A stretch of DNA of 64,000 nucleotides from an uncultured Lentisphaerales bacterium (GTDB lineage: Bacteria; Verrucomicrobiota; Lentisphaeria; JABSQK01; UBA12247): assembly GCA_943788985.1 (NCBI GenBank), contig CALSSJ010000013.1, forward strand, positions 21,521-85,520, read 5' to 3'. The notes beneath the pieces were generated by a model. The model saw nothing but the letters and a program-made list of their open reading frames with translations, ran no database searches and had not been told where the DNA came from. Positions 30,999 to 39,600 of this stretch are shown piece by piece. A program made the translations under genes and the position numbers. Every line of letters starts with the position of its first letter. Within the stretch, counting starts at the first letter, position 1.

Positions 30999-31410
30999 GC
31001 CTACATGCGAGAGGAGTGGCAGTGCACCTACTTCAAGCTCGACGCCAATAGGTGGAGTGCCCTGCCCTTCGGTTGGATGATGGATCTCAATGCCACGCAG
31101 GTCGATGCCTATCGCGCTGGCAGGCATGCAGTCATCGACGGCGCAGGCCCGGACACCTTTATCCTCGACTGCAATGCGCCAATGTGGCCCTCCGTCTGGC
31201 ATCGCGGCACAGTTCGAGGATCACACATTTTGCCTGGGGCGCATCGTTCGCCCTGATGGCGAGATCCTCTGCCTGTTCAACCGGGACGACACGCCGCGCC
31301 AGGCCGAACTTCCCGCTGGCACCTGGACCGACTTTTGGACCGATGCGCCAGTCACAGGCCCACTGGACCTGCCCGCTCACAGCGCCCGCGTGCTCCGCAG
31401 TCCTACCTAA
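30999..31410 (+). pseudogene. GH36-like alpha-galactosidase 3' remnant with internal deletion
   Basis: MREEWQCTYFKLDAN and CNAPMWPS, then a jump to PPSGIAAQF..LCLFNRDD..WTDFWT. Confidence 0.65.
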
Positions 31411-31488
31411 GACTGGCAGAAATGCCCCGGTGATGTTGCTCCGTCACTAAGTCATCAAGTTCCCCCTGAAACGAGCAGTAGTCATGGG

Positions 31489-31698
31489 CTAATAATGCGG
31501 AGGACGCTCGTCTTCCGGCCGACGGGGTCCAGACGAGGCCTCTTGGACATCCGAGATGGAGTCAGTTAACTGCTCAACCATCTTCTCCAAGCGATCAATT
31601 TGGCCCTGCTGTCGGGTCACGACCTCATTGAGATCATCCAGCATCTGCTCTTGGTAGCCAAGTTTCACCTCAAGGTCCACGACACGTGCATCATCCAT
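31489..31698 (-). CDS. slyX: SlyX family protein
   Basis: DLEVKLGYQEQMLDDLNEVV...DERPPHY. Confidence 0.9.
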   Translation of the reverse strand: MDDARVVDLEVKLGYQEQMLDDLNEVVTRQQGQIDRLEKMVEQLTDSISDVQEASSGPRRPEDERPPHY

Positions 31699-31886
31699 TC
31701 CAACCACCCTTCATCGATTCAATTCCTGCGCGGTCAATCAGCGTCATCCAGTCTTCGCCGAACGCATGGTGCTCCTGCTTGGCAAGCAAGCTAAGGGCCC
31801 GCGCGGGAATACCTTCACATCTTGCTTCTGAGCATTTTGGCTTCTTTGCCCCGTTTGATTCAGTGCCCAGACCAGACAACGGGGGC

Positions 31887-31914
31887 TTGCAGATCTGGGG
31901 GGGGGGGGTATACT
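31887..31914 (+). promoter_or_regulatory. sigma70-like promoter with G12 homopolymer in the spacer
   Basis: TTGCAG (31887-31892), 16-nt spacer ATCT+G12, TATACT (31909-31914); about 90 nt upstream of ATG 32005. Confidence 0.6.
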
Positions 31915-32004
31915 CATTCCTGAATAATTGCATAAGCCCGGCTGTGTCGCTGGGCGGATATCAGAATGCGATTACCCCACTTTTTTATCTTAGGGAATGT
32001 CCAC

Positions 32005-33813
32005 ATGAAGACTCCAACACAAGTGGCGTTGTTGTGCCTTGCCGCGAGCCTGTACGTGACAACTGTCGCAAACGCGGGCACGGCCAATTACCGAAACACG
32101 GTGTTGGGGGATAGCCCCCTCGTCTATTACGAGTTTGATGAGACCAGCGGCACCACTGCGACCAATAGCGGGACCCTGGGCGCTACGCATCACGGCACCA
32201 TCGTCAGCACTGTGGCGCTCAACCAGGCGAGCTTTGCCAAGGGCGGCACTGCCTATGACTTCGGTGGTGGCTGGGTCGCGGCGGCGGCAGCGGCCTCTTC
32301 GTTAACCGAATGGACGGTGGAAGCGTGGATCAACTGGGACTCGACGAAGACCACCAGGTCCCACATTTTCGGCAACGACCAAAGCGGCTGGAACGATGAT
32401 GTTCTGCTTGGAATCGGTGTTGAAGTCGGGGGGCAAGGTGTCCCAGCCAGTAATGTCGGCTGCATTCAACAGGGCAGCCCGGGCAGCACTCGCGACTTTG
32501 TGACAGAGCCCCTGGCTCACAGTGAGTGGCACCATGTTGTCGCTACCGGCAGTACCACTGCTGGCGAACTCAAGCTGTACGTCGATGGCGTGCTCGTGGA
32601 TACGGACAGTTCGCTCGCCAACGGGGTGACATTGAACGGAACGGGTGGCATCGGCTCGCCCTCTGTTTTTGTGGGGAAAGATGGTTACGCCAATCGCACA
32701 TTCGACGGACTGATTGACGAATTTGCGCTCTACGACACGGTGCTCGACGCCACGAGGGTGGAGGCGCACTATGTGGCGGGCCAAACGGAGGTGTTGCTGG
32801 TCGATATCGACATCAACGGCACCACGTCGGGCACCGTCCTGAACCAATCGGGCACCGACACGATCGTCATCGATGCGAGCAACAGTGGCGACAAGCGGAT
32901 GACCGTCAATGGATCGCACCTGACGCAGACGCGTGGCGTGGCCATCGCCGTGCCGACGGCGTTGGGGATCTCCCTACCACGGCAGGTGATCAATGTCACC
33001 GGCGAACTGACCAATCCGGGGACATCCGGTTTCCCCGGTATCTGGTTCGCGACAAACGACATCTCCGGCGGCGGCGCTGAAGCGAACTACGATTTCGCTG
33101 TGGCGCATTTTCCATTTTCTGGCGGCTGGATCGCTGGCACGGTGGATCAGGACGGCACCGTCCTGGCGGGCAACACGACGGACGTCACAATCACCAAGCG
33201 ATCCGGGGCCGGCGTCACCAGCGGCAACTACTCGCTCGACATCGCCGGCGTGAATCCTTCGACCGACGGCTACCTGTTCACCATTGGGGCGCAGAATGAA
33301 ACCAGCGGCAACTACGCGCCGACTCGCATTCAGCCGGACAATTCCGGGTGGGACATCACCATCAGCGATCAGGGCGGCGACGCCAATGACGGAACCAACG
33401 GCGAGAACGACGACTGGAGTTTCGTCTACATTCCTGAGAACGCTCGTAACCTGATCGCCGGGCGCATTGACGACGATGCGACCGTGTTGGACAGCGTCGG
33501 CAGCTTCAGCGTCGCGTCGCAGCCCACCACCGGCGAGTATCTCTTGACGATCCCGGACGGGGTGGGCGGGTTCCTGGGCAAAGACGACGGCGTCCTGCTG
33601 CTCAACGTGACCAAGGACGGGGCGCCTGCCTTCGATGGCGCCGATGACAACTTCCTGCTTCAGGCGTACAGCAGTGCGGACGAGGGCTTCATCGTCTCGT
33701 CGCACGATCTTGCGGCAGCCAGCGACCAGACCACCGAGTGGTCGTTCGCTTTCCTGCAGTTCGACTCGCCGGCGCGCATTCCCGTGCCGGGCGCTGTCAT
33801 CCTATTGTACTAA
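32005..33813 (+). CDS. Secreted LamG-like jellyroll protein with C-terminal PVPGAVILLY motif
   Basis: Signal peptide ..VANA, YYEFDE, WTVEAWI, WHHVVAT, KLYVDG, FDGLIDEFALYD. Confidence 0.85.
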   Translation: MKTPTQVALLCLAASLYVTTVANAGTANYRNTVLGDSPLVYYEFDETSGTTATNSGTLGATHHGTIVSTVALNQASFAKGGTAYDFGGGWVAAAAAASSLTEWTVEAWINWDSTKTTRSHIFGNDQSGWNDDVLLGIGVEVGGQGVPASNVGCIQQGSPGSTRDFVTEPLAHSEWHHVVATGSTTAGELKLYVDGVLVDTDSSLANGVTLNGTGGIGSPSVFVGKDGYANRTFDGLIDEFALYDTVLDATRVEAHYVAGQTEVLLVDIDINGTTSGTVLNQSGTDTIVIDASNSGDKRMTVNGSHLTQTRGVAIAVPTALGISLPRQVINVTGELTNPGTSGFPGIWFATNDISGGGAEANYDFAVAHFPFSGGWIAGTVDQDGTVLAGNTTDVTITKRSGAGVTSGNYSLDIAGVNPSTDGYLFTIGAQNETSGNYAPTRIQPDNSGWDITISDQGGDANDGTNGENDDWSFVYIPENARNLIAGRIDDDATVLDSVGSFSVASQPTTGEYLLTIPDGVGGFLGKDDGVLLLNVTKDGAPAFDGADDNFLLQAYSSADEGFIVSSHDLAAASDQTTEWSFAFLQFDSPARIPVPGAVILLY

Positions 33814-33831
33814 TGCCCAGCGGTCGGAGGC

Positions 33832-34921
33832 ATGGCGCATATCGACGGTAGGACATTGCGAAAGCGATTTACTCTGATCGAATTATTGGTCGTGATCGTC
33901 ATCATCGCCATACTGGTGTCCCTGCTGCTCCCGGCGCTGTCGCGCGCCAGGTACACAGCTCGGCTGGCCGCCTGCACTAGTGAGCTCCATCAATGGGGTA
34001 TTGGCCTCACTGCGTGGGCAGGGGAGCACGACAGTTATCTGCCCGAACGCTCTGTTTACTCGAACGGCAATCGGCAGCCACATTTGCTGAAGTCGGGTGG
34101 AGCCGATGATCGACAGCTTTTCGACGACGTGCTCGGGCTCCCGCGTACAAACTGTACGTTTGTTGGCGAGCCCCCTTATGACATCGCTACAGTGGGAGGC
34201 CCGTATGTGCTTTCAAGCTATGAATTTTGAGCGGGCGCGGAAATCGACCATAGGCAACCCGCCTCGAGCATGTTGCGCATTGGCGACACCATGAATTGGA
34301 CTTCATGCAGCACGAACTATGAGTTTGACATCTTAGGGCCCACGCGGAAATAACGTTACATTTTGGCGGGAGCGCCGGATGGTCATATGCAAGGCGCGTG
34401 GAGCGATGCGTACCCGTAGGTACGTATGCGACACGCAACGCCGCAGATGGCTGTCCGCCGCCCCGCCCCGCAGGGCAGGGCTGCGACTGTTTTGCCCCCT
34501 GGCGGCGTTGCCTCGCTCGAGATATACCTACAGGTATACCCGCTCGCTCGCGCCTTGCCAGGAACCAAAACAGCCAGCAGCAAAATGTAACGTAATATCC
34601 GCGCGGGCCCTTAGTGGCAGACATGGACCGCACACGTCTGGCGTCCAGTAACTCGGTGATGTCTTCGCATCCACAGACAGTGCTGGGTTGCTCCCTTTGC
34701 AGTTGATAGCCCCCGGATACAAGATCTATACCTACTTCTCATCGGGCGGAGTGCGCGGAACGGTGGATCGGAACTTCCTTCACTCTGACGGCTCAGTCAG
34801 TCGTATGACAAAGGTTCTCGCTCCTACGCCTACCAACTGGGATTCACGGCTCGTACGCGTTCCCTATCAATCGAACAGGCCTGCCGATTCGCCTTCCGGC
34901 TATCTGCCGACGGCTGACTGA
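33832..34921 (+). pseudogene. Prepilin-type N-terminal cleavage/methylation (FTLIELL) protein, disrupted
   Basis: [29 protein letters not shown]; TGA at 34228-34230, MITE at 34336-34610, frameshift near 34673, and C-terminal RNFLHSDGSV in ORF 34688-34921. Confidence 0.85.
34336..34610. mobile_element. 275-bp MITE, 30-bp TIRs, TTA target-site duplication
   Basis: TIRs GGGCCCACGCGGAAATAACGTTACATTTTG and GGGCCCGCGCGGATATTACGTTACATTTTG (27/30); TTA at 34333-34335 and 34611-34613; removal restores EFDILVADMDR in frame. Confidence 0.88.
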
Positions 34922-34923
34922 CT

Positions 34924-34957
34924 GGCACCGCCCCGCCCCACTCCAACGGTGCCTTTC
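34924..34957 (+). terminator. Probable terminator
   Basis: GGCACCG/CGGTGCC stem followed by TTT, just after the prepilin-type gene. Confidence 0.5.
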
Positions 34958-35193
34958 CTGTCCTACTGCTGCGGCGATAGTTTTTCTTGGATGGCAGTCG
35001 CCAATCTAGATCTCACATCTGGATACGGCCTACCAATCGCCCTGCTTGCACTCTCCCATTTCTCGCCTAGGTTGGACTGCTTCAGCAACCTCACCGAACG
35101 CCTGCCACTAATTCCGCTGGCTGTTCAGATGCCCACTTCTTAGATCGTATTAAACGATCCCCGCGCCAAACACTGCATAGAGAGGAATTGACA

Positions 35194-35346
35194 ATGACAA
35201 TATGCCCAATCGCCTTAGTAGCCGGCTGCAAGAAATGTCTGCTATTCAAGGTCTGCCCCTTGAAAAGTGTCATTGGTGATCACAAGAAACTGGACGAAAC
35301 GCAAACAAAGCAGCACGCCGAGAACGACGAAAGTAGGGACCAGTAG
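35194..35346 (+). CDS. 50-aa four-cysteine small protein MTICPIALVAGCKKCLLFKVCPLKSVIGD...
   Basis: RBS GAGAGGA, ATG 35194, TAG 35344-35346; Cys at positions 4, 12, 15 and 21. Confidence 0.7.
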   Translation: MTICPIALVAGCKKCLLFKVCPLKSVIGDHKKLDETQTKQHAENDESRDQ

Positions 35347-35569
35347 CCGAAGACGAGGGCATAAAAAATATTGGAGAACTGAGTCCCTCCTTTTATTTTT
35401 CTCCCTTTCATTTTTCTGCCAAATTCTTTTGATTCCCTGAAATAGGACTGGCCCGCGCGGGCGCAACCTGGGACAGATGTCCCGCTGGCTTAGAGGCTTA
35501 CAGGCAGAGCCCGACCGACTGGATCGGGGGTGAAACGCAAAATGATTGGTCGCCAGCGGTGGCATGGTC

Positions 35570-35830
35570 CTTGCCAGCGATCGGATGATGGATCTCACTG
35601 CTGACCACGCAGCTCGCCTTGCCAAGCTGATCCCCCGTCTGGCATCGCAGCCCAGTTCGACGACCACACATTTCGCCTAGGACGCATTCCTCATCCCGAT
35701 GGCGCCATTCTCTGCCTGTTCAACTGGGACGACACCCCGCGCCAGGCAGAACTACCCGCTGGCAGTTGGACCGTCTTTTGGACCGGCGAGCCAGTCGCGG
35801 GACCACTGGCCCTTGCCGCTGCTTGCAGGC
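35570..35830 (+). pseudogene. Second GH36-like 3' remnant (paralog of 30999-31410)
   Basis: ASGGMVLASD..LAKLIP, SGIAAQFDDHTFRLGRI..LCLFNWDDTPRQAELPAG; nucleotide similarity to 31190-31380 is visible. Confidence 0.6.
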
Positions 35831-35880
35831 AAGTTAGGGCGTGGCACAGGAATAACTTCAGATGCTGCTAACGCGCGGGA

Positions 35881-36177
35881 TTGTGGGAGGCCGGAAGCGA
35901 TAAAAACTCTGCGGCAACACGCCTGAGGCGCTTGGGCAATCGACCACAGTTTATCAGCCAGGAGAAAAGTGTGGCGGCCACAAAGACGTATCTTGAGAAC
36001 GCATGTCCGTCAGGAAATTTCACCTTCCAGGCACTGCCCTTCCCCAATCACACAGATGCCTGGGTGCTTCGGGATATTCCAGAAAGAAAAGTGATTCGGG
36101 ATTGGTTCAAGCAAGTTCTTAAAGAAAAAAGCCAGCAGGGCGCTGAAGGCGACGCGGCAAAGCGCACCGGCTGGTAG
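35881..36177 (+). pseudogene. C-terminal fragment of a hypothetical (hydrolase-like) protein
   Basis: RLRRLGNRPQFISQE..FTFQALPFPNHTDAWVLR reads as a protein C-terminus; no RBS or start. Confidence 0.4.
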
Positions 36178-36202
36178 CTTGAACGGTCGCATGAAGGATT
36201 TG

Positions 36203-36330
36203 GGACAAGAATATTTTGAGGACAAGAAAATGGGACTGTGGTTCGGTGCAGCATGTTTGACGTTGCGCTCCGAATCCAGTTAGTTCGGGCCTATCCCCAC
36301 GGGATGGTTTGGCCCTTATTTTTCTTGTCC
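36203..36330. repeat. Short inverted element with GGACAAGAAAAT / ATTTTTCTTGTCC ends
   Basis: Tandem GGACAAGAA units at 36203-36231 and an inverted copy at 36318-36330. Confidence 0.4.
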
Positions 36331-36621
36331 TATCCAAGCTGCAGCTTCCGGAGTCCGTAGGCCCCGTCCACCACCACACCGTAGCCCCAATCAGGCGCTG
36401 CTGCCTGACGGCTATCTATCGCCGCATCAGTAGTCGCGAGTCACTGGTCCCAAAACAAAACTGGCTGGCTAGCAGATCGTATGAGAAGGCGCGTCATTTT
36501 TTAGCGCCAACTGGTTATCCGTTGCGACGCGCGCCTGGTAGGTTACGTCTTTCTTTCTCTGCCGCTTATCCGAAAGGGCCGTGGCTAAACTCGACCATCC
36601 CATCATCCCAGAAGGCGCATC

Positions 36622-39600
36622 GTGCAAATCCAGAAATGCTATCAGTCTAAAGCCCGCGGAAAGCGAGCCCTCCCCGGGGCCCTGGCCATCCTGTTTATCC
36701 TCTGCGCGTTACTGGCCAGTGAAGCGGCAGCAGCACGCAAAAAGGTCCTGTTTATCGCAGGACACCCCAGCCATAGCAATGGTGAACATGAGTTTCGCGC
36801 GGGCTGCATGCTGCTGGCTAAGGCGATCAATGATAGTGGCCTAGATATTGAAGCCGTGGTCCATTCGTATGACTGGCCTAAAGATGAAAGCATCTTCGAG
36901 GGCGTCGACGCGGTGGTGATTTATGCGGATGCGGGCGGGCCGATCCGGAACAAGCTCACCTTTCTTGATGAGAAAGTAAAGGCGGGCATGGGCATCATGT
37001 TCATGCATTACGGTGTGCACCCGCCCAAACAGATTGGCCAAGACTATTTTTTGGACTGGATCGGCGGCTACTTTGAGACGGGTTGGTCGGTCAATCCCCA
37101 TTGGATTGCGGACCTGGCCCCGAAGGCCAATCACCCGGTGGGCAATGGTATCGACAAGCCCGTGAAAGCCTATGACGAGTTCTATTTCAACATGCGCTTT
37201 CCCACGGATTGTGACGAGTGCTATCCGCTGGTGACGGCCAGCCCGCAACCAGATCGGATGGTGCGCTATATCAACCTCTGGAATGAACACGGCGATGCCG
37301 CCTTTGGTAAGCCACAGGCGTTGATGTGGTGCAGAGACCCGAAGAGCGGCGGACGCGGAATCGGTTTCACCGGTGGCCACTACCACAAGAACTGGGCCAT
37401 TGACGACTTTCGCAAGCTGGCGCTCAACAGCATTGTCTGGCTCGCTCGTGGTGAGGTCCCCGCAACCGGCGTGCCGTCCCAGCCCCTTACCCAGGAGCAC
37501 CTCAACGCGAATCTGGACCGGCCAAAGCCCGGCGAGGTCCTGCCCCTGCCGGATGGCTCAGAGTTGACCCAAAAGCCCATGGCGCGTCCGCAGGACCCGG
37601 CCAATTACGGGCGCAAGGGGAAGACCAAGCCGAAAGCGTCTAAGGCGAAGAAGAAGGCACGAAAATCCAACAAGGCCAAAGCCGCAGCGCCGGATGCCGC
37701 CTCGCCCCAGGCTTGGACGCGGCCACTGTTGAGCAGCGACAAAGAGCGATTGGTGCAGGTGGAACTGATGGTGAAAGGCCTCAAGGAGATTTATCTAACC
37801 GTGGATGACCTGCATGAAGACAGTCATGATTGGGCGGATTGGCTAAACCCGCGGTTTGTCGATGCCCAGGGCAAGGAGACGCTTCTCGGGCAATCGCAGA
37901 TTGTCAAGGCCACGCAAGGCTGGGGAAAACTGAAACACGACATGAGCGTGGGTGGCAAGCCGCTTAAGGTCGCGGGCAAGACCTACAAACAGGGACTGGG
38001 CACGCACGCCCCGTCCAACATCGCTGTGACTGTGCCAAAGGGCGCAGTGAAATTTCTTACCTCAGTAGGGATCGACGACGGCGGTGCGCTGCGAAACGGT
38101 AAGCCGACCCCCGCTGGCATGCGCTTTGGCGTGCTCGCACAACCTTGGAGCGGAAAGAGCGCGGAGACGGCGGGCAAGCTCACCAGCAAAACGCTCGTTC
38201 CTGCGGACTACCTGACCGCGACCGGCGACCTCGAGGTCACGCTCTGGGCCAGTAGCCCACTGCTCCATAACCCGACCAACATGGACACTGATGCCGATGG
38301 CCGCATCTGGGTCGCGGAGGGCGTGAACTATCGCAGGCATGGAAATCGGGCTCCGAAAGGAGACCGGATCGTGGTCTTGGAAGACACCAATGGCGATGGC
38401 CAGGCCGATACCTCCAGCGTCTTTGTACAAGACCCGGAGTTAGCTGCGCCGCTGGGCGTGAGCGTCTTTGGCAACAAAATTGTGGTTGCCCAACCACCCA
38501 ACCTCCTGGTCTATACAGACGTCAATCACAACCGCGTATTCGAGAAAGGCATCGACACCCGCGAGGTGCTGCTGACTGGCTTCAATGCCAAGCAGCACGA
38601 TCATTCCCTGCACTCGGTCACCGCTGGCCCCGACGGCCAGTGGTATCTGAACCAAGGCAATTGCGGCGCAGTCTTTACGGCTACCGACGGGAAGACCTTT
38701 CGGCTCGGCAGCCCCTATAAAGGCGGCGGTGGCGAATGGTTCGTGGATCAAAAAGCAGCGGCGGGCCAGCCCAGCGATGACGGCCATGTCTGGATTGCTG
38801 GCTTTATCGCCCGAATGAACCCCGATGGCAGTAATGTCGAAATTGTCGGCCACAACTTCCGCAATTCGTACGAAAACACGGTCAACTCCTACGGGGAAGT
38901 CTTTCAGAACGACAATGATGACCCGCCCGCTTGCCGCACCTCCTATGTGCTGGAATACGGGAACGCCGGCTTCTTTTCAGCAGACGGCAAGCGCACCTGG
39001 CAGGTGGATCGCCGTCCCGGCCAATCCACCCCGACCGCACACTGGCGTCAGGAAGACCCCGGCACGATGCCGTCTGGGGATGTCTACGGGCGCGGCTCAC
39101 CCACAGGAATCGCCTTTTATGAGAACGGTGCCTTGCCCACATCCTACCGCGGTACGCTGTTGAGCGGGCAGGCAGCCCTCCGCTTGATATTTGGCTACCA
39201 GCCAGAGCCCGACGGCGCTGGCTACAAACTGGAGCGCTCGCACTTCGTCGCGGCCACTGGCCCGAAGGATCCGGCTCTGCAAGGCGATAAGGTCTGGTAC
39301 AACTTTCGGCCGTCGGATGTCATGGTAGGTGCAGATGGCGCGATCTATGTCGCAGATTGGTTTGACCCGGGGGTTGGCGGACACGGCGATCGTGACGCGG
39401 CAACCGCGGGTGCTATCTACCGCATCGCGCCCAAGGGCTTCAAGAGTGCCCCGAAAAAGATCGATCTGACGACCTTGGAGGGGGCGGCCACCGCCCTGGA
39501 ATCACCAGCGGTGAACGTACGCTACGGTGGCTTTGTGGCGCTCCGCGAGCGCGGCGCCGCGGCACTTCCTACCGTGACTAGGTTGATGAAACACGAGAAT

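Follow-up and report, generated by a model that had tools for sequence, protein, structure and literature searches.

A length-variable G tract between promoter-like hexamers upstream of a LamG-protein gene: a candidate porA-type switch in a marine Lentisphaerales bacterium

Could a run of twelve G residues, placed between two promoter-like hexamers, set the transcription of the gene behind it in a free-living marine bacterium? Promoter switches driven by slippage belong to the textbook repertoire of host-restricted pathogens (Neisseria, Haemophilus, Treponema, Helicobacter), and to our knowledge they are hardly documented in free-living marine bacteria. The question is raised by a locus in the draft genome of an uncultured Lentisphaerales bacterium (GenBank assembly GCA_943788985.1), which we studied in a stretch of 64,000 nucleotides of contig CALSSJ010000013.1 (positions 21,521 to 85,520), referred to below as the window. 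A sequence-only reading of this DNA had proposed phase variation of a surface protein operon through a poly-G promoter spacer, and we have followed up that proposal with the genome's own promoter statistics, with assemblies of the same population and with homologous loci.

The G tract and the hexamers around it

The site reads TTGCAG-ATCT-G12-TATACT on the forward strand (31887-31914). Its -35 hexamer, TTGCAG (31887-31892), is followed by the four bases ATCT (31893-31896) and by the G12 homopolymer (31897-31908), which together form a spacer of exactly 16 bp, 12 of them G, before the -10 hexamer TATACT (31909-31914); re-reading the layout confirmed the arrangement and its coordinates as first described. 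The distance from the -10 hexamer to the in-frame ATG of the LamG gene (32005) is 91 nt, in agreement with the earlier figure of about 90 nt, and the genes that follow match Laminin_G_3 and TIGR02532, as expected from their description as a secreted LamG protein and a prepilin-type gene. Transcription would be predicted to start 6-9 nt past the -10 hexamer (31920-31923, plus strand), giving a leader of about 83 nt. A minus-strand ORF of 80 aa spans the tract (31691-31933); it matches no family, gene callers report it just as a partial gene where contigs end, and it was dismissed as spurious. An Rfam search of positions 31000-36700 returned no meaningful match.

The tract had been singled out as the longest G/C run in the window, which it is, and it is also the longest homopolymer of the whole draft genome (4.58 Mb in 48 contigs). 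Genome-wide, G/C runs of 7, 8, 9, 10, 11 and 12 bases number 166, 53, 23, 5, 2 and 1, respectively. The roughly fivefold drop per added base between lengths 5 and 7 would lead one to expect about 0.04 runs of 12, and G12 is thus the extreme of a generally heavy tail of G/C runs.

A promoter and terminator scan based on E. coli found nothing at the site, because TTGCAG shares just three of its six positions with TTGACA. We replaced the E. coli rule with a consensus derived from the genome's own sites. The pattern TTGNNN-Nx-TANNNT was counted in the intergenic DNA (about 0.7 Mb) for spacings from 12 to 22: there are 351 sites at x = 16, 211 at x = 17 and about 148 at each of the others, and coding DNA has no peak of this pattern at N16 or N17. 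Restricted to the same strand and to the 100 nt before an ORF start, the counts for N14, N15, N16, N17 and N18 are 18, 18, 150, 67 and 22; set against a background of about 18, roughly 88% of the N16 sites are in excess. Among the 43 tRNA genes, 18 have an N16 site and four an N17 site, other spacings being almost absent, and these N16 sites begin mostly 40-65 nt upstream and are of the TTGCAA/TTGACA type. The derived consensus is TTGCA-N16-TAT..T, with housekeeping promoters of the form TTG(C/A)A-N16-TAnnnT; a spacer of 16 bp dominates (about 70%), 17 bp forms a minor class, and neither 15 nor 18 bp shows any excess.

Both hexamers of the LamG site fit this pattern, TTGCAG matching the genome's own TTGCA and TATACT fitting TAT..T. 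The anchor bases lie 16 bp apart and 91 nt before the start codon on the same strand, inside the limits we set for a sigma-70-type site (16 or 17 bp, 0-100 nt), and the site ranks at the 76th percentile among the 150 N16 sites, both with and without the anchor positions. The 320-bp intergenic region between the LamG gene and the divergent slyX gene (31489-31698, minus strand; 69 aa as called in other assemblies; Pfam SlyX, 3.4e-23) holds no other fully anchored site, whichever strand is read. By our estimate from base composition, a random tract would be framed by TTG.../TA...T at the preferred spacing with a chance of about 0.1%. Taken together with the 88% excess over background, this leads us to consider it likely that the hexamers around the tract form a promoter. 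The homopolymer would then lie between -35 and -10, as in porA-type promoters, and it is from these statistics that we infer promoter function and the use of the two boxes by RNA polymerase.

A rival reading holds that the hexamers match by chance, that the real LamG promoter lies elsewhere and that the tract either has no transcriptional effect or acts on the divergent slyX. Such a reading would agree with the empty E. coli-based scan and with the two nearest LamG homologues found (L060, 77% identity over the full length; L061, 68%), which share an ordinary promoter about 185-240 nt upstream of the ATG (TTGCCA-N17-TATATT in L060) and a long leader with a conserved 28-nt element. However, the DNA upstream of our site is a MITE-end fragment without similarity to the promoters of these relatives, the intergenic region offers no second fully anchored site to take over the role, the non-anchor positions fit the consensus too, and the great majority of N16 sites so close to an ORF start exceed background. 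We therefore regard a chance match as very unlikely.

The promoter statistics also bear on which tract length would be the active one. It had been proposed that one extra G would bring the spacer to an optimal 17 bp, and this part of the proposal did not survive: the organism prefers 16 bp and uses 17 bp as a minor class, so G12 would already be optimal and an additional G would be expected to weaken the promoter. E. coli-based promoter rules under-call such promoters and would misjudge which allele is ON.

Tract length across assemblies and the behaviour of other repeats

The comparison set comprised about 19 independent public assemblies, all of this population. Pattern scans for exact copies of the locus in genome and metagenome contig collections gave no match, and the contigs were found by exact-protein look-up with the 602-aa LamG protein, two LamG variants and the 69-aa SlyX protein. 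The identical LamG protein is present on seven contigs of other assemblies, and SlyX has exact matches in 38 collection blocks, from which 21 contigs were read. The record names of matching contigs point to marine metagenomes, some of them labelled North Sea.

Contigs of other assemblies that cross the tract carry 9, 9, 9, 10, 10, 11, 12 and 13 G residues, the number of independent G9 cases being uncertain since some assemblies may share read sets. G9 is found in L014, L017 and L018; G10 in L016 and in L057, which also lacks the first T of TATACT; G11 in L012, a contig that starts 1 nt before the tract and has this single base as its left flank; G12 in L015, as in the window itself; and G13 in L007. 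Eight contigs stop inside the tract, five coming from the right (L008, L009, L011, L056, L058) and three from the left (L019, L020, L021), and two more (L022, L010) stop within 30 nt of it. In all, about half of the assemblies break here, and the G residues kept at broken contig ends, up to 13, are lower bounds on tract length. None of the alleles recovered falls below G9 or has an interrupted tract.

The DNA around the tract is far more constant than the tract. The 60 nt of left flank are the same in every contig aligned on the tract, and the right flank has only four SNP positions, at 31922 and 31924 (TGAAT or TTATT), 31926 and 31936 (G or T). Point variation in the LamG gene is likewise far lower, with four variable sites in 1809 nt among 12 alleles. 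Contigs that share one haplotype across LamG and flank nevertheless differ in length, as do L014 (G9) and L056 (at least 12) and, on another comparison, the window (G12) and L009 (at least 13); identical SNP haplotypes with differing tract lengths indicate that length changes arose repeatedly. The sharing of haplotypes and the breaking of contigs at the tract are consistent with mixtures of lengths within a sample. The possibility raised at the outset that the tract is invariant in the population does not hold, as it ranges from 9 to 13 on near-identical DNA; as in porA-type systems, length varies between constant flanks, and the coding control tracts described below do not vary.

Length differences and contig breaks at a long G run could also be artefacts of sequencing or assembly, an objection that the sequence-only reading had itself anticipated. 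Long G runs lower Illumina read quality and cause length errors in long-read assemblies, and two of the crossing contigs, the G13 and one G10, have Flye-style names and frameshifts elsewhere and may come from long-read assemblies with homopolymer errors. Relative to all ten covering assemblies, the window's own assembly has three private +1 insertions, which lie in short homopolymers some 2.3-2.8 kb upstream of the tract (29084, 29100 and 29596; C13:50604, 50620 and 51116). Against this stand two coding homopolymers that served as controls: a G10 (C33:22487-22496) in a gene for a 2150-aa SdrD_B/beta-helix adhesin-like protein and a C10 (C22:11652) in a 667-aa Kelch-repeat gene, each unchanged in length across 10 of 10 other assemblies, in sets that took in contigs of the same projects, including the two long ones with Flye-style names. 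This constancy (20 of 20) implies that the assemblies size 10-mers reliably and that differences of 3-4 bases at the G tract are biological. Such differences also exceed the usual one-base stutter, and short-read assemblies alone yield 9, 11, 12, at least 12 and at least 13. We thus consider an artefact of this kind so improbable that it can be set aside.

Two observations made along the way stand apart from this argument. The control G10 lies about 145 codons into its gene, behind pseudopilin-like genes, and is no visible frameshift switch. The three private insertions split a TPR/LRR protein, called at 761 aa elsewhere, into 588 and 160 aa; the break in this 'pseudokinase' gene may be confined to the window's assembly, as an error or as a pseudogene private to it.

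Other non-coding repeats in this population do vary. An intergenic C11 (C9:12889-12899; L023 3890-3900) has 8 and 7 bases in two assemblies; a third contig begins within the tract. A C7 (C22:13500; L026 at about 5001) is C6 in three of ten assemblies, and a (CCTTC)n repeat nearby (C22:13359; L026 at about 4860) has one unit fewer in five of ten. The C11 belongs to the second-longest G/C tract class (11) and lies 108 nt upstream of an FGase-family gene, with no promoter-like hexamers around it, and the two repeats on C22 occupy non-coding DNA flanked by genes for a pseudouridine synthase and a gamma-glutamyltranspeptidase. From these cases it follows that hypermutability is generic to unconstrained repeats here rather than specific to the LamG locus, and that variability alone is no proof of an evolved switch or contingency locus. 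The genome carries genes for both MutS and MutL, each with an open frame, which sets it apart from that of H. pylori, an organism without mismatch repair.

A further C11 (C18:53244-53254, minus strand; L024 3245-3255) is found at the 5' end of one small ORF (GTG..VDGPPPPGFTVGFDGWHEEF...) that immediately follows a second one. Read as G11 it stands between TTGACG and TACGGT at 19 bp, hexamers that we treat as a chance match because the tract encodes PPPP in the small ORF; the tract might be a translational frameshift site.

The LamG gene, its surroundings and its relatives

The gene behind the tract (32005-33813, plus strand) encodes a predicted secreted LamG-domain protein of 602 aa (Pfam Laminin_G_3, E 2.3e-19) with an N-terminus, MKTPTQVALLCLAASLYVTTVANA, that by inspection is a Sec-type signal peptide, and with a truncated PEP-CTERM-like tail. 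Each of the 12 full alleles recovered keeps the frame intact; the substitutions among them, two synonymous and two non-synonymous, are too few for an informative dN/dS. At the C-terminus (33778-33813) the protein ends in IPVPGAVILLY*, where the 77% homologue L060 runs on into a complete PEP-CTERM sorting signal (IPEP, a hydrophobic stretch and GGYVRR), and the exosortase-type anchor appears to be truncated in this species, in all assemblies. The next gene (33832-34230, plus strand) is a fragment of 132 aa with a prepilin-type N-terminal methylation domain (TIGR02532; 20.4 bits, cut-off 16.3). It has the same 132 aa in other assemblies, and no recognisable continuation was found behind it. The surface protein operon of the first description comes down to a LamG gene with a truncated PEP-CTERM tail and, after it, a prepilin-type fragment beside a MITE.

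The surroundings carry several remains of mobile elements. The genome has five full copies of a MITE family with the terminal repeat ctAAGGGCCCGCGCGG; a full inverted copy, in which the repeat itself was checked, lies behind the prepilin fragment (34333-34613, minus strand), and a solo left end of about 58 nt that matches ctAAGGGCCCGCGCGG... lies about 39 nt upstream of the -35 hexamer (31791-31848, plus strand). A complete element would be a unit of about 275 bp bounded on either side by a TIR; at 31791-31848 there is a left end, after which the sequence diverges. The G tract is not part of the MITE, since the similarity ends about 48 nt before it, and the rest of the intergenic region, tract included, is unique in the genome. 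The solo end and the inverted copy bracket the promoter region, LamG and the prepilin fragment in a composite-like arrangement of about 2.8 kb with their terminal repeats pointing inward. On the other side of slyX, a 177-aa ORF (30669-31202, minus strand) has a weak likeness to the C-terminal part of IS1634-family transposases (NF033559, E 0.001) and probably represents a transposase remnant. At about 31456 (C13:52976), directly past the slyX stop, an extra copy of a 16-bp unit, TTGACTCGATGACTTG, is present in L014, L017 and L020, and a similar form in L007, which makes it a small tandem-repeat polymorphism. The locus sits in remodelled, degraded DNA.

The tract is not a shared feature of homologous LamG loci. 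In 29 such loci (42-77% identity), G/C runs within 260 nt upstream never exceed 6 bases, and the search for similar promoters at other LamG loci that had been suggested as a check accordingly came back empty. None of 40 relatives in a species-representative set, which holds no same-family relative, has DNA similar to the locus. As L060, L061 and 27 other homologous loci lack the tract, the tract-bearing promoter would be a lineage-specific replacement. The genome's other promoters include none with a long tract in the spacer, which means that there is no set of such switches in this organism.

Switch or drift

The mechanism invoked for this locus is well established elsewhere. In N. meningitidis porA, a precedent cited in the initial proposal, -35 and -10 are separated by a poly-G tract, and departure of the spacing from its optimum lowers transcription (PMC7864442; van der Ende 1995, cited in PMC5084427). 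The first of these sources (PMC7864442) also describes T. pallidum, in which poly-G tracts in the promoters of tp0126 and tpr, genes for signal-peptide proteins, vary in length within and between isolates, and in which tp0126, with its tract between -35 and -10, is expressed best at optimal spacing. The LamG locus resembles porA in that a G homopolymer forms the spacer of a putative promoter whose gene product is predicted to be exported, where slippage would alter the spacing of the boxes, and resembles tp0126 in having poly-G between the boxes of the predicted promoter of a signal-peptide gene. It differs from porA in that its host is a free-living marine bacterium and not a host-restricted pathogen, and in that the optimum deduced here is 16 bp and not 17. 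Moreover, Neisseria has many such loci and this genome a single one, and while T. pallidum offers many paralogous genes with reporter and RACE data, our case is one locus with comparative evidence.

A looser likeness links the locus to H. pylori sabA, where a homopolymer also lies near the core promoter; the T-tract is described as a rheostat whose length tunes transcription stepwise (PMC4081817). The sabA tract adjoins the -35 element and acts through DNA geometry, whereas in our case it is the -35/-10 spacing that would change. A literature search for phase variation in Lentisphaeria found nothing relevant. In Chlamydia, an obligate intracellular pathogen, the tracts studied reportedly lie mostly inside genes and act by frameshift. 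Phase variation through homopolymeric tracts is reported for this PVC relative (PMC4514472), and homopolymeric tracts have been found to be over-represented in prokaryotes, as a general regulatory device beyond the classical pathogens (Orsi et al., 2010; PMC2831843). That survey concerns tracts within coding genes, and the present case is a promoter spacer with population data.

We hold with moderate confidence that the LamG locus is a porA-type switch, in which a hypermutable spacer in a real promoter sets LamG transcription through its length. Under this model, the G tract would be the spacer of a sigma-70-type promoter driving LamG, and slipped-strand mispairing at replication would add or remove G residues much faster than point mutations arise, despite MutS and MutL, with each change of length shifting TTGCAG relative to TATACT. 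At G12 the spacer would have the organism's preferred 16 bp and expression would be full; at G13 it would fall into the minor 17-bp class and expression would be reduced; and at G11 or shorter, and probably at G14 or longer, the promoter is predicted to be off because the spacing leaves the range the organism uses. The natural alleles split about evenly between those predicted to be ON (12, 13) and those predicted to be OFF (9-11). The population would thus consist of heritable, presumably reversible ON, dim and OFF variants of one secreted lectin-like protein. Control of transcription by tract length and its usefulness to the cell are both steps that we infer.

The same patterns could be produced by neutral drift, if a hypermutable homopolymer had arisen within the promoter of a gene that is decaying and dispensable, or had taken that promoter's place; expression might then change with length and no switch would have been selected. 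All non-coding repeats that we examined vary in this population, and the predicted dead lengths G9-G11 are frequent, as would be expected of an unconstrained promoter, to which the missing first T of the -10 box in L057 adds. The loss of most of the PEP-CTERM tail relative to the 77% homologue, the fragmentary gene that follows beside a MITE, the IS and MITE debris upstream and the confinement of the tract to this one promoter, with none in relatives and no family of such promoters in the genome, point in the same direction. Against drift stand the open LamG frame in 12 of 12 full alleles and the uninterrupted tract of nine or more residues in every allele, and the framing of the tract at the preferred spacing would be a rare coincidence by the base-composition estimate given above. 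On balance we judge the neutral explanation, the main rival, unlikely, while taking it seriously. Of the original suggestion of candidate phase variation we retain the variable tract in a promoter-like site; its variation is by itself no sign of an evolved contingency locus.

The locus is probably a slippage switch of the known porA kind. The near-clonal population turns up in many public seawater metagenomes, where five or more tract lengths occur, and so offers a natural experiment on the predicted ON/OFF ratios. The tendency of the tract to break metagenome assemblies implies, in addition, that sites of this type are systematically under-represented in assembled genomes. More tentatively, and as a proposal that we consider rather doubtful, free-living bloom-associated marine PVC bacteria may use simple-sequence contingency loci, such that stochastic ON/OFF expression of LamG hedges benefit against cost and the ratio of the two states shifts through North Sea spring blooms. 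If this were true, the benefit might be, for example, attachment to algal polysaccharide or particles, and the cost might be, for example, the exposure of a recognition target for phages or grazers.
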